A DNA stretch of 64,000 nucleotides from Candidatus Omnitrophota bacterium (GCA_028712505.1 JAQTQC010000005.1:7051-71050); one strand, 5' to 3'; shown: positions 37,956-41,381, counted from the stretch's first letter. Notes: a model not told the origin generated them from the sequence alone. Numbers and translations are program-made.

Positions 37956-39413
37956 ATGCCAGAAAAAACATCTGAAAATCTAAGTTTGATTAACTTTATC
38001 GAGCGTAACCACGATGGCATCATCATCGTGGATAGGGCCGGTCTTGTTCTTTTTGCCAATCTTGCCGCAACCAAAATCTTTAACCGCTCCCGGCAGCAAC
38101 TATGCGGAAAGCAATTTGAATTTCCTCTCCCGGGAGACAAGACGATTGAGATTAATATACCCGGGAAAAGCAAGGAATTCGGCGTGGCCCGCATGCAGCA
38201 GATGCCGATAGAGTGGCTGGGTAAGCGGGCCGTTGTTTTATTGGTGCATGACATTTCTGATCTTAAGAAAACAGAAATGCTTAAAAGCGCCATCGATGAG
38301 CGCAGACGTATTGACCGGATAAAGAATGAGTTTATTTCCAATGTTTCCCATGAATTACGCACTCCGCTTACTTCTGTGAGGGAAGGGATAAGCCAGATAC
38401 TAGAGGGGTTCTTAGGCAAGACCACTGTGGGGCAAAAAAAGTTTTTGTCAATGTGTCTTGAAGATATTGACCGGCTTTCCAGGATTATCGATGGGCTCCT
38501 GGATATTTCAAGGATTGAATCCGGTAAGATTATCTTGAAGAAAGAAACACTGGATATTGTGGATTTAGCAAAAAGCGCGGTAAGCTCTCTTTCGGTTAAG
38601 ATAAAAAATAAAAGGTTGGAACTGATCGAGGATTACCCTAAAGAAAAAACAGAAATTTATGTGGATAGGGATAGGATTATCGAGGTGTTTGTCAATCTGC
38701 TGGGTAATGCCATTAAATTTACCGATAAAGGCCATATAGGTATTTCTATAAAGAATAAACCTAAAATGGTTGAGTGCTGCATCGAGGATACCGGCAGGGG
38801 GATAGCTAAAAAAGACCTGTCCAGGGTTTTTGTCAGATTTCAGCAGTTTGGTCGTGTTTTCGGCCCGGGAGAGAAAGGGACCGGCCTGGGTTTATCTATT
38901 GTTAAAAGCATTATTGAATTACATAAAGGGCAGATCCGGGTAGAGAGTAAATTGAACAAGGGAACCAGGTTTATTTTTACCTTGTTTAAGTACACTTCCA
39001 AGGAGTTGTTCAGGCAATATATAGTTGATAGCTTAAGAGAGGCAGTGCATAATGATGAGCCGCTTTCAATCTTTCTTTTTTATATTGATGATCTGGCGCT
39101 TGTCAGGAAGGAGTTTGAAAGCCAGAAGATCACTTCATTGATGAATAAATTCTATGAAATAGTCGGTGGGCACTTGCGCAGGCAGGCAGACCTGGCGGTT
39201 AAAGATGATAGCGCTATCCTATTGGTACTTCCGGTTACTAAGAATGAATATATCGAGAGTATTCAGTTGAGGTTGAAACAGGCGCTCGAAGAATATCTGA
39301 CTAAAGAAGGTCTGGACAAGAAAATCAAGATAGGGTGCAGGACAGCCGGTTTCCCCCGGGACGGCTCAAGCGCAGATGTTTTATTTGATAAGATACAAGA
39401 GGTGCTTAATTAG
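37956..39413 (+). CDS. sensor histidine kinase (PAS, HisKA, HATPase_c) with a C-terminal degenerate GGDEF-like extension
   Basis: H-box [13 protein letters not shown] boxes LLGNAIKFT and [10 protein letters not shown]. Then about 140 extra residues (IFLFYIDDLALVRK ... QADLAVKDDSAILLVLPV) resembling an inactive GGDEF domain. Confidence 0.75.
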   Translation: MPEKTSENLSLINFIERNHDGIIIVDRAGLVLFANLAATKIFNRSRQQLCGKQFEFPLPGDKTIEINIPGKSKEFGVARMQQMPIEWLGKRAVVLLVHDISDLKKTEMLKSAIDERRRIDRIKNEFISNVSHELRTPLTSVREGISQILEGFLGKTTVGQKKFLSMCLEDIDRLSRIIDGLLDISRIESGKIILKKETLDIVDLAKSAVSSLSVKIKNKRLELIEDYPKEKTEIYVDRDRIIEVFVNLLGNAIKFTDKGHIGISIKNKPKMVECCIEDTGRGIAKKDLSRVFVRFQQFGRVFGPGEKGTGLGLSIVKSIIELHKGQIRVESKLNKGTRFIFTLFKYTSKELFRQYIVDSLREAVHNDEPLSIFLFYIDDLALVRKEFESQKITSLMNKFYEIVGGHLRRQADLAVKDDSAILLVLPVTKNEYIESIQLRLKQALEEYLTKEGLDKKIKIGCRTAGFPRDGSSADVLFDKIQEVLN

Positions 39414-39429: not shown

Positions 39430-39795
39430 ATGGCTAAAAAGATATTATTGGTTGATGATGAACCGCATATAATTATGATGTTGGAAAATAGGATGAAGCA
39501 TGCCGGTTATGATGTAATTACTGCTTGCGATGGCCAGGAGGCTCTTACCAAGGCGCAGAAAGAAAAACCCGACCTGATTATCTTGGATTTAATGCTTCCT
39601 AAATTAGACGGCTATAAAGTATGCCGGATGCTCAAGTTTGATGAAAAATATAAACATATACCGATAATTATGCTTTCCGCCCGGGCACAGGAAGCAGACA
39701 AAAAAATGGGGGAGGCTGTAGGGGCAGATGGTTATGTGACCAAACCTTTTGAGCCGCAGGTATTGTTGGGTAAGGTAAAAGATCTGCTGGGGTAA
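39430..39795 (+). CDS. single-domain CheY-like response-regulator receiver
   Basis: KILLVDDEP, DLIILDLMLPKLDGY, IIMLSA, YVTKPFEP. RBS AGGAGG 8 nt upstream of the ATG at 39430. About 65% identical to the receiver at 60997-61371. Confidence 0.8.
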   Translation: MAKKILLVDDEPHIIMMLENRMKHAGYDVITACDGQEALTKAQKEKPDLIILDLMLPKLDGYKVCRMLKFDEKYKHIPIIMLSARAQEADKKMGEAVGADGYVTKPFEPQVLLGKVKDLLG

Positions 39796-39805
39796 AGTAT
39801 TATGT

Positions 39806-39833
39806 TTGACATTTGCAATTAAAGTGGTATAAT
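39806..39833 (+). promoter_or_regulatory. near-consensus sigma70 promoter TTGACA - 16 nt - TGgTATAAT
   Basis: -35 TTGACA at 39806-39811; extended -10 TGGTATAAT at 39825-39833. Confidence 0.6.
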
Positions 39834-39863
39834 AAACCAAAGATTAGGAATCATTCAGTTCAG

Positions 39864-39901
39864 GCCGCAAAGAGAGGGCAACTAACCTTTGCGGCTTTTT
39901 T
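39864..39901 (+). terminator. intrinsic terminator: 9-bp GC-rich stem GCCGCAAAG/CTTTGCGGC followed by TTTTTT
   Basis: Stem at 39864-39872 and 39887-39895, T-run at 39896-39901. Only about 25 nt downstream of the predicted +1 of the promoter above. Confidence 0.6.
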
Positions 39902-40082
39902 GGGTCTATCACCTGGTCTAGGAGGTATCTATCAAAAAGGTAAAGACTTCGCTTAAAGGAAGGAAGTGCAAATACTTGCACTGTAAACATATATTAAGTA
40001 TTTATAATCACGAAGATTATTGCCATATCCATCTTGGTTTACTGGCTTATGGTAATAAGGTTAAGACAAGTAAGGATACTTG

Positions 40083-41381
40083 ATGAATAAAACAATAATT
40101 ACAAATGACCCTGCTCCGGTAAACGCGGATTTTTTTGGTTTGGGTATTGCCCCGAAAATCCTGGATATCTTAGAGGGTTTGAAGTTCAAGACTCCGACGC
40201 CTATCCAGTTAAAGGCTATTCCTTTGGCTATCGAAGGCAAAGATATTGTGGGTATTGCCCAGACAGGAACCGGCAAGACGCATTCGTTTGCCATCCCCAT
40301 GGTCCAACGCCTAGTGCAGAAAAAGGGTATAGGATTGGTTCTTGCTCCGACAAGGGAATTGGCCATCCAGATAGATGAATCTGCCCGGGTACTTGCGCAT
40401 GCCTTTGGTATGAAGACCGCCTGCCTTATTGGCGGAGCGCCTATGGAGCCTCAGGTACAGGCATTACGAAAAGATCCCCGCTTAGTAATTGCTACTCCGG
40501 GGAGGCTGATTGATCATATGTCGCAGTGGAATTTTCTGCCTGATAGCGTAGTTATGCTGGTACTTGATGAGGCGGATCGTATGCTGGATATGGGGTTTGC
40601 TCCTCAAATAGAGAAGATATTACGCTTCCTGCCTAAAGAAAGGCAGACGATGCTTTTTTCAGCTACTATGCCTAAAGAGATCATGAGTATTGCTGCTAAA
40701 TATATGAAATTGCCTTTGAGTGTTGAGATAGCTCCTCCGGGGACGACCTCTGAAAAGGTTACCCAGGAGTTATTTATCGTAAAGAAAGAGTCAAAGACTC
40801 AGTTGCTTAAGAAACTGCTTGCGCAATATCACGGAACAGTACTTTTATTCTCGCGTACTAAACATAATGCTAAGAAGATCGTCAGGTCAATCCGGGATAT
40901 GGGGCATTCTGCCGCGGAGATCCATTCCAACCGTTCTCTCAGTCAACGCCGGGAGGCCTTAGAGGGTTTTAAATCCGGGAAATACAAAGTTTTAGTTGCT
41001 ACTGATATTGCTTCCCGGGGGATTGATGTTACCGGGATTGAGCTGGTAATAAACTATGATCTGCCTGAGGATGCGGAGAATTATGTGCATCGTATAGGCA
41101 GGACTGCCCGCGCAGGACATAAAGGCCATGCTATTTCTTTTGCTACGCCGGATCAAGGGCATGATGTACGCGATATTGAGAAACTTATTAAAGCTACCCT
41201 GCCTGTATCTAAACATGCTGAGTTGACTCTTGATAAGTTTAGTGAATCCAATAGTTCTAACCATAATCCCGGCCGTTCTTTTGGCCGCCAGTCTAACCAC
41301 GGGCACTCAGGACATGGCCAGGCAAACCATGGCCAGGCCAAGAAGCCTTATAAATACCCCAAACCTAAATTTTACCGTTAG
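40083..41381 (+). CDS. DEAD-box ATP-dependent RNA helicase with Gly/His/basic C-terminal tail
   Basis: Q-motif, AQTGTGKT, PTRELA, DEAD (LDEADRMLDMGF), SAT, HRIGRTARAG. The ATG at 40083 is preferred over the TTG at 40080. Confidence 0.85.
   Translation: MNKTIITNDPAPVNADFFGLGIAPKILDILEGLKFKTPTPIQLKAIPLAIEGKDIVGIAQTGTGKTHSFAIPMVQRLVQKKGIGLVLAPTRELAIQIDESARVLAHAFGMKTACLIGGAPMEPQVQALRKDPRLVIATPGRLIDHMSQWNFLPDSVVMLVLDEADRMLDMGFAPQIEKILRFLPKERQTMLFSATMPKEIMSIAAKYMKLPLSVEIAPPGTTSEKVTQELFIVKKESKTQLLKKLLAQYHGTVLLFSRTKHNAKKIVRSIRDMGHSAAEIHSNRSLSQRREALEGFKSGKYKVLVATDIASRGIDVTGIELVINYDLPEDAENYVHRIGRTARAGHKGHAISFATPDQGHDVRDIEKLIKATLPVSKHAELTLDKFSESNSSNHNPGRSFGRQSNHGHSGHGQANHGQAKKPYKYPKPKFYR

Follow-up and report, generated by a model that had tools for sequence, protein, structure and literature searches.

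Among the closest described systems are the 5' untranslated regions of the Escherichia coli cspA family (cold box, RF01766), in which a strong, largely constitutive promoter is combined with control in the RNA leader, a conserved sequence near the 5' end is common to several cold-shock genes per genome, and alternative folds are favoured in the cold. In addition, cspA is autoregulated through the cold box. The E. coli cspA leader is about 160 nt long, acts on mRNA stability and translation and does not contain a canonical hairpin plus U-tract terminator. To our knowledge, the natural RNA thermometers known to date act on translation or stability, not on termination. In the classical terminator/antiterminator leaders (riboswitch platforms, PyrR, Bgl/Sac RAT and T-box), a promoter is followed by a short leader, a terminator and a promoterless first gene, and the 5' part of the terminator 3' strand has a complementary segment upstream. 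Premature termination at SAM riboswitches also gives rise to the 5'-UTR-derived small RNAs SreA and SreB of Listeria. Finally, in E. coli, Csp proteins bind nascent RNA and lower intrinsic termination, with CspA, CspC and CspE acting at the metY-rpsO terminator and CspD at sRNA terminators (PMC9765468).

A 64-kb stretch of DNA from a Candidatus Omnitrophota bacterium (64,000 nucleotides, hereafter the window) contains a leader of about 60 nt that resembles those of the cspA family in its strong, upstream promoter, in its conserved 5' sequence shared by several cold-shock genes per genome and, in models only, in its alternative folds favoured in the cold. However, the two have no sequence or structure similarity (no Rfam match) and, in contrast to the E. 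coli cspA leader, the Omnitrophota leader is dominated by an intrinsic terminator. With regard to Csp antitermination, this terminator is placed ahead of csp and helicase genes and has U/C-rich single-stranded segments, and a Csp may have a role; the E. coli terminators concerned are operon-internal or at 3' ends and have no dedicated conserved boxes, whereas that of the Omnitrophota is a dedicated, phylum-conserved leader module. The order of elements and the complementary upstream segment recall the classical terminator/antiterminator leaders, but no sensor domain (aptamer, RAT or specifier) could be recognized, and the putative antiterminator, of 8/9 bp, is invariant and far weaker than the terminator. 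As in the case of SreA and SreB, early termination behind a strong promoter would yield a discrete small RNA that could act in trans, but no trans target or function is predicted for it. Sequence comparison identifies the element as a copy of an RNA leader, not described before, that precedes cold-shock genes in many Omnitrophota, which are uncultivated, so that gene regulation in this group is essentially unknown. It is very likely a cis-acting leader of a cold-shock regulon and likely acts via conditional termination.

In the window, the cassette opens with the -35 hexamer TTGACA (39806-39811; the cassette and the genes downstream all lie on the plus strand), recognized both by direct reading of the sequence and by a promoter scan, and continues, after a 16-nt spacer that ends in TGg, with an extended -10 element, TGgTATAAT (39825-39833; TG at 39825-39826, TATAAT at 39828-39833). 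The promoter scan scored positions 39806-39833 as 12/12 with an extended -10, the sole 12/12 consensus in the 64 kb, and an exact TTGACA-N15-19-TATAAT occurs once in the window versus 0.11 times expected from shuffles. From the predicted transcription start at about 39839-39841, some 24 nt lead to a terminator hairpin, P2 (39864-39895), the stem of which comprises 9 bp, 6 of them G-C pairs, formed by the 5' strand GCCGCAAAG (39864-39872) and the 3' strand CTTTGCGGC (39887-39895) around a 14-nt loop (39873-39886). Directly 3' of the stem is a T6 tract (39896-39901), as read from the sequence. The segment 39840-39905 folds at -19.7 kcal/mol (RNAfold; z = -2.57 versus shuffles), and in a custom scan of both strands P2, at -14.8 kcal/mol, surpasses every other single hairpin of the window that has 5 T or more behind it; a stock terminator scan passed over P2 solely because that scan stops at loops of 8 nt. 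Thus, the consensus promoter with its 16-nt spacer and the 9-bp GC-rich hairpin plus T6 (39864-39901) about 25 nt past the +1, both of which had been pointed out in a sequence-only reading of this DNA, were confirmed, and the 55-60-nt RNA proposed there was approximately right: a transcript from the predicted +1 ending in the U-tract would be about 58-62 nt long.

The same custom scan yielded 12 hairpin-plus-T5 sites of -9 kcal/mol or lower in the 64-kb window on both strands, most of them weak, and the strongest lies in the 5' leader and not where an operon ends. The host genome may have few canonical intrinsic terminators.

A search with the helicase encoded downstream collected 80 loci from Candidatus Omnitrophota MAGs at 72-97% identity, and the same cassette was found at about 75 sites in related Omnitrophota loci, in the order consensus promoter, AAAGATTAG, variable segment, hairpin with the 3' half aCTAACCTTTGCGGc, and T-run. 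A covariance model, R1, built on an alignment of 64 leaders (A1), gave 81 matches in 91 sources, 100% of them co-stranded with the downstream gene. The window copy scored 56.9 bits under R1 and the second-best match in the window 15 bits, and such conservation is the weightiest evidence that promoter and hairpin did not come together by chance; by the covariance model and a pattern search, the 64-kb window holds no cassette copy beyond this one. When metagenomes were scanned with the pattern AGATTAG-N15-45-CTAACCTTT, about 11 of the 120 matches listed were true, the rest being mostly due to chance. The promoter matched the consensus at 12/12 positions in 49 and at 11/12 positions in 23 of the 79 related instances (72/79 together), with a 16-nt spacer in 68/79 and the TG extension of the -10 in 30/79. 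In the most distant homologues of the small protein encoded downstream (P0029-P0031, loci L201-L205), the leader motif was absent, and across the loci compared the motif is limited to one clade of Omnitrophota.

The cassette is followed first by a small Cys/His ORF in 54 cases, by the gene for a cold-shock-domain (CSD) protein in 17 and by the helicase gene itself in 7. The CSD proteins are of two types (Pfam CSD, 1.4e-20 and 1.5e-29), and where csp comes first the gene order is csp, small ORF, helicase; some 7-kb loci (L065, L067) carry two cassette copies ahead of different cold-shock genes. Upstream of the cassette, more than 60 of 69 instances have an unrelated gene, and in 13 the upstream gene is divergent, on the opposite strand. 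Because the downstream genes are of three kinds and the upstream ones varied, we assign the cassette to the downstream cold-shock-type genes. This association, seen in about 75 instances, upholds in outline the earlier proposal of a leader attenuator; its other part, that the attenuator controls read-through into the helicase gene, needs amending, since the first gene to be controlled in the window is the small Cys/His ORF and not the helicase directly. Moreover, the cassette exceeds a generic terminator: it bears two invariant boxes (see below) and also stands before csp genes, which by sequence makes it a motif at the level of a regulon.

The upstream neighbours in the window are a PAS histidine kinase gene (37956-39413) and a receiver-only response regulator gene (39430-39795), the stop codon of which is 10 nt from the -35 hexamer. 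This kinase-receiver operon has no terminator of its own, and its transcripts probably run into the leader and end at P2 as well. From such proximity it could be argued that P2 is simply the terminator of the two-component operon and that the promoter-like sequence arose by chance, the scenario that the sequence-only reading had itself put forward as a refutation. We consider this extremely improbable: of about 69 instances, only 5 (the window, L002, L003, L008 and L042) have a receiver gene upstream of the cassette, which persists in over 60 other upstream contexts (divergent in 13), and the promoter is at 11-12/12 nearly throughout.

The regular linkage to downstream genes also bears on the proposal that the cassette is a gene for a trans-acting sRNA of about 60 nt, in which the 5' box or the loop box would pair with other mRNAs or titrate a protein and the association with cold-shock genes would reflect nothing but synteny. 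A discrete RNA of 58-62 nt is indeed bounded by a perfect promoter and a strong terminator, its 5' end and loop, single-stranded and conserved, are reminiscent of sRNA seed regions, and there are multiple copies per genome. However, the cassette is never detached: all high-scoring copies lie directly 5' of a co-oriented cold-shock-type gene with no space for a promoter in between, and the cassette travels with the downstream gene when csp, the small ORF or the helicase is swapped. Thus, it has the promoter and terminator of an sRNA gene and lacks genomic independence from the gene that follows. A free-standing trans-acting sRNA, as once suggested, is unsupported as the primary role, and we regard it as very unlikely; it is possible that the terminated RNA of about 60 nt has a second role.

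What the arrangement does match is an attenuator, with a leader located between a consensus promoter, retained in the great majority of relatives, and a first gene that lacks one. T-run and Shine-Dalgarno sequence are 18 nt apart in the window and only 2 nt apart in L018, L019 and L032, which leaves no space for a second promoter; therefore, the downstream genes must be transcribed through the terminator from the consensus promoter. The signature of an intrinsic terminator, a GC-rich stem-loop with a U-tract and with compensatory substitutions in the stem, is likewise present in P2. In 72 of 78 relatives, the stem leads into a run of at least 5 T; pairing is kept in 94.7% of alignment cells for its lower half and in 84.1% for its upper half. 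Compensatory changes affect two pairs (GC/GU/AU at one and CG/UA/UG/GC/AU at the other), and double-change cells number 39 versus 16.8 in shuffles, a value reached by 0 of 500 shuffles, with slid controls clearly beaten. Conservation and covariation of the hairpin in relatives, which the sequence-only reading had named as a check, are thus both evident. Beyond the anatomy, the conservation, the linkage to cold-shock genes and the covariation of the stem, all of which are shown, we infer that termination does occur at the P2 U-tract, that it is conditional, and that a box-box helix or a Csp provides the switch.

The DEAD-box RNA helicase gene (40083-41381; Pfam DEAD 8.9e-50, Helicase_C 3e-30) is the last gene of the unit. 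The stretch of 180 nt before it, previously taken to be a long 5' UTR, is occupied by a conserved 50-codon ORF (39931-40083), the translation of which begins IKKVKTSLKGRKCKYLHCKHILSIYNHEDYCHIHLG. This ORF starts with ATC, is preceded at a distance of five nt by the Shine-Dalgarno sequence AGGAGG (39920-39925, 18 nt past the T-run) and ends in a TGA (40081-40083) that overlaps the helicase ATG. An in-frame TAG at 39919-39921 leaves it without a canonical start upstream, as is the case in 18 loci including the window, and the next canonical start would remove the first conserved Cys. The ORF was matched in about 65 of the 80 loci (tblastn, E 1e-15 to 1e-31) and encodes 47-50 aa across the cassette loci. 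One clade uses ATC (25 loci) or ATT (16) as the first codon and others use ATG (22), with a strong Shine-Dalgarno sequence always ahead; for the ATC/ATT starts it lies 4-9 nt upstream in 41 of 42 loci. Because of these ATC/ATT starts, gene callers overlook the small gene or place its start wrongly.

In the small protein, which is unannotated, C18, LSIYN, C31 and H34 are invariant and C13, H27 and H32 nearly so, a pattern that looks like a candidate CCCH zinc site. There is no Pfam match, the comparison with PDB sequences gave non-significant matches alone (E of at least 0.9), and Foldseek with an AlphaFold model (pLDDT 66) gave no match in the PDB. The 31 database homologues are all hypothetical proteins from Omnitrophota, and the gene always adjoins csp and/or DEAD-box helicase genes; the cassette singles out this 50-aa Cys/His protein, specific to the phylum, as a partner of Csp and the DEAD-box helicase. 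In 50 of 63 loci, the stop codon of the small ORF shares 1 or 4 nt with the start of the helicase gene (TGATG at 40081-40085 in the window, an ATGA form elsewhere), which suggests translational coupling of the two genes.

Several observations concern this gene alone. That a cold-shock gene should start at a codon other than AUG brings to mind the IF3-sensitive initiation of infC. Public gene calls such as P0001, P0003, P0005, P0007 and P0008 carry non-conserved N-terminal extensions (MPPR.., M.RKERATNLCGFF..; e.g. in L010, L024 and L027) that begin at an ATG inside the terminator 5' strand (ATGCCGCC) and read across the leader hairpin; we attribute these extensions, an annotation artefact, to the non-canonical start. 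Furthermore, a high-GC contig of a distant Omnitrophota member without the motif (L205:508-1019) carries a CSD gene followed by a homologue of the small protein, and since the csp-small protein pair occurs there without the leader, the pairing is older than the leader.

The most strongly conserved parts of the leader are two boxes. The 5' box AAAGATTAG (39839-39847) is at or adjoins the predicted 5' end of the transcript, and the 3' box CTAACCTTT (39882-39890) comprises the 3' side of the P2 loop and the top of the 3' stem strand. Both are nearly invariant among relatives, as 5' AAAGAUUAG and as 3' CUAACCUUU spanning the loop into the 3' stem: among the 64 aligned leaders, A-G at alignment positions 4-5 and TTAG at positions 7-10 of the 5' box are invariant, and the 3' box is invariant or nearly so. 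By comparison of these sequences, such invariance exceeds what the P2 stem alone explains. The window also contains a weak 5' hairpin, P1 (GAUU-AGG-AAUC, 39842-39852, in the centroid fold), which takes the form AAGAUU/AAUCUU or AAAG/CUUU in other lineages and is paired in 80.8% of cells over 80 distinct sequences, with few double changes; these data lend P1 moderate support. Two candidates for the conserved blocks were rejected, namely, a leader peptide, because the blocks are split by indels that are not multiples of three and the reading frame of the window ORF 39813-39956 is not conserved, and a DNA operator (inverted repeat), because the spacing of the boxes ranges from 25 to 38 nt across relatives.

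The two boxes are complementary to each other at 8 of 9 positions, and RNAalifold, applied to a MAFFT alignment, selects exactly this long-range helix (AAAG.AUUAG / CUAA.CUUU), which is paired in 98.1% of cells and shows zero covariation, because both boxes are invariant. Inside the helix, variation on either strand is confined to the 1x1 mismatch, where 5 sequences have U for A and L080 has A for C; in addition, one U-A pair becomes U-G in L049, and at the helix ends A changes to G opposite U, so that G-U pairing is kept. This pattern of variation is consistent with a helix that includes a 1x1 mismatch. Pairing between the boxes would fit the data, and the invariance would fit recognition by a protein equally well.

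Protein recognition is the core of an alternative that we deem unlikely, though far from negligible: the boxes would bind an RNA-binding protein of the regulon (Csp, the small Cys/His protein or the helicase) that feeds back on the leader and stabilises or melts the terminator, the complementarity of the boxes being incidental or secondary. Boxes that are invariant in sequence and do not covary would be expected under this scheme, the regulon does encode nucleic-acid-binding CSD proteins, a DEAD-box helicase and a small protein with candidate zinc-binding residues, and CspA-family proteins of E. coli modulate intrinsic termination and autoregulate (PMC9765468 for termination). On the other hand, complementarity at 8/9 positions is unlikely to arise by chance, with a rough estimate of a few percent allowing for choices of register, and the mismatch is the only varying internal position, as the helix predicts.

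The invariant loop nucleotides, typical of aptamers, could also be taken to indicate a small-molecule riboswitch, in which ligand binding to a pseudoknotted aptamer (the UUAG of the 5' tail paired with the CUAA of the loop and stacked on the stem) would stabilise or destabilise the terminator. An H-type pseudoknot is geometrically possible, since the CUAA that would pair with the 5' UUAG lies directly beside the 3' stem strand. However, the conserved core is tiny, the downstream genes are of the stress and RNA-remodelling kind (CSD, helicase, small Cys/His) and include no metabolic or transport genes of the kind to which metabolite aptamers are linked, and a lineage without the terminator folds as a long-range helix (see below). 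Nor is there a match to an Rfam family: at gathering score the window has none, the cspA thermoregulator RF01766 being among the families covered, and the region 39700-40200, with E allowed up to 10, gives chance snoRNA, miRNA and lncRNA matches far below threshold. We consider a riboswitch highly improbable. A search of the literature on Omnitrophota RNA motifs and on the box sequences found nothing relevant.

A metagenomic lineage provides a natural separation of boxes and stem. In L095:1399-1458(-), L099:2613-2672(-), L143:553-612(+), L163:1612-1671(-) and L177:824-883(+), the terminator stem is lost, with the 3' strand drifted to UCAGC, AGAAC, CCAGC or UCCGC, and both boxes are intact. The predicted MFE fold of this lineage is the box-box helix plus an inner UCUU:AAGA helix. 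Since the boxes are kept where the stem is not, selection on the boxes is independent of the stem, and, as judged from these copies, the boxes must have another function besides antitermination. The same stem-less copies still have the promoter and the small ORF.

Such copies would be accommodated by a leader that works without termination, as an element of 5' UTR stability or translation, in which the hairpin protects the 5' region of the mRNA, the U-tract is a landing pad for ribosomes or S1 directly 5' of the Shine-Dalgarno sequence, and the box-box helix tucks in the 5' end, in the manner of the cold-stabilised cspA mRNA. The U-tract is indeed 2-18 nt from the Shine-Dalgarno sequence in many loci, and with few other canonical terminators in the window, intrinsic termination is not established for the organism. 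However, a GC-rich stem of 9-11 bp followed by U6-8 is the canonical intrinsic-terminator signal of bacterial RNA polymerase, and stem and T-run are kept together in 72/78 relatives, with compensatory changes in the stem. For these reasons we hold an element of this kind to be quite unlikely.

In the attenuator that we propose, to which we give about an even chance, the leader acts in cis and is switched by the box-box antiterminator helix or by Csp binding. The perfect sigma-70 consensus promoter would fire constantly, and because the first 60 nt or so of the RNA hold the terminator, most transcripts would stop at the U-tract by default, so that the downstream genes (in the window, those for the small Cys/His protein and the DEAD-box helicase) would be expressed only when RNA polymerase reads through. 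Pairing of the 5' box with the 3' box would withdraw the top of the terminator 3' strand and thereby act as an antiterminator; since the 3' box overlaps the top of that strand, the box-box helix and the full terminator are mutually exclusive. The box-box helix, which is weak, AU-rich and mismatched, would be made before the base of the terminator and, being transcribed ahead of it, is proposed to win the kinetic competition more often in the cold. CSD proteins bound to U/C-rich single strands may act too, as they do at other intrinsic terminators.

Equilibrium energies favour the terminator over the antiterminator fold by 9-13 kcal/mol throughout the range from 4 to 37 C, and a purely thermodynamic switch was rejected for this reason; with the terminator dominant at every temperature, only a kinetic or a protein-assisted switch could work. 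We modelled the nascent RNA ending in CCUUU, an endpoint that precedes the existence of the stem's GC-rich base, and the box-box helix was the MFE fold in 40 of 75 sequences at 37 C and in 51 of 75 at 10 C. In this model, the median pairing probability of the boxes declines from 0.86 at 0 C to 0.42 at 37 C, a fall to be expected for any weak helix, and that of the window copy from 0.95 to 0.73. The modelling is compatible with a kinetic antiterminator favoured by cold. By analogy with known Csp systems, a switch assisted by a protein, or autoregulation, is just as plausible and would account for the invariance of the boxes as well.

The most specific version of the attenuator is a transcriptional RNA thermosensor, in which the mismatched and marginally stable box-box helix would form co-transcriptionally only in the cold and pre-empt the dominant terminator. 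We put this forward tentatively, on the basis of the folding models and at a probability well short of even; if it is true, a single module of about 60 nt switches on csp, a CCCH mini-protein and a DEAD-box helicase across a clade. In the warm state, the terminated RNA would be abundant and possibly doubles as a Csp sponge. Whichever switch operates, the cassette is a compact module of a perfect promoter plus a leader of about 60 nt that marks a cold-shock regulon, and, should termination be conditional, it would represent a new RNA motif family for cold-shock control and may be a rare case of temperature sensing at transcription termination.

Some variations on the cassette were confined to particular positions or loci. 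The -35/-10 spacer (39812-39827 in the window) is partly kept among loci with unrelated upstream genes, as TTGACAAa..c..AtAaagtGgTATAaT, which hints at an extra DNA-level signal or at extended -10 constraints. Between the T-run and the Shine-Dalgarno sequence, many relatives, among them L009 (about 2815-2845), L005, L013, L014, L016, L021 and L027, carry a second GC-rich hairpin immediately 5' of the latter, missing from the window copy, with apparent covariation (GCCUGCC...GGCAGGC versus GACUGCC...GGCAGUC); this hairpin may be an added translational control. Finally, in L039:2711-2781 and L042:2699-2769, the P2 5' strand is tandemly duplicated (GCCGTAATTAAGCCGTAAAGG), so that one 3' strand has two alternative 5' partners.
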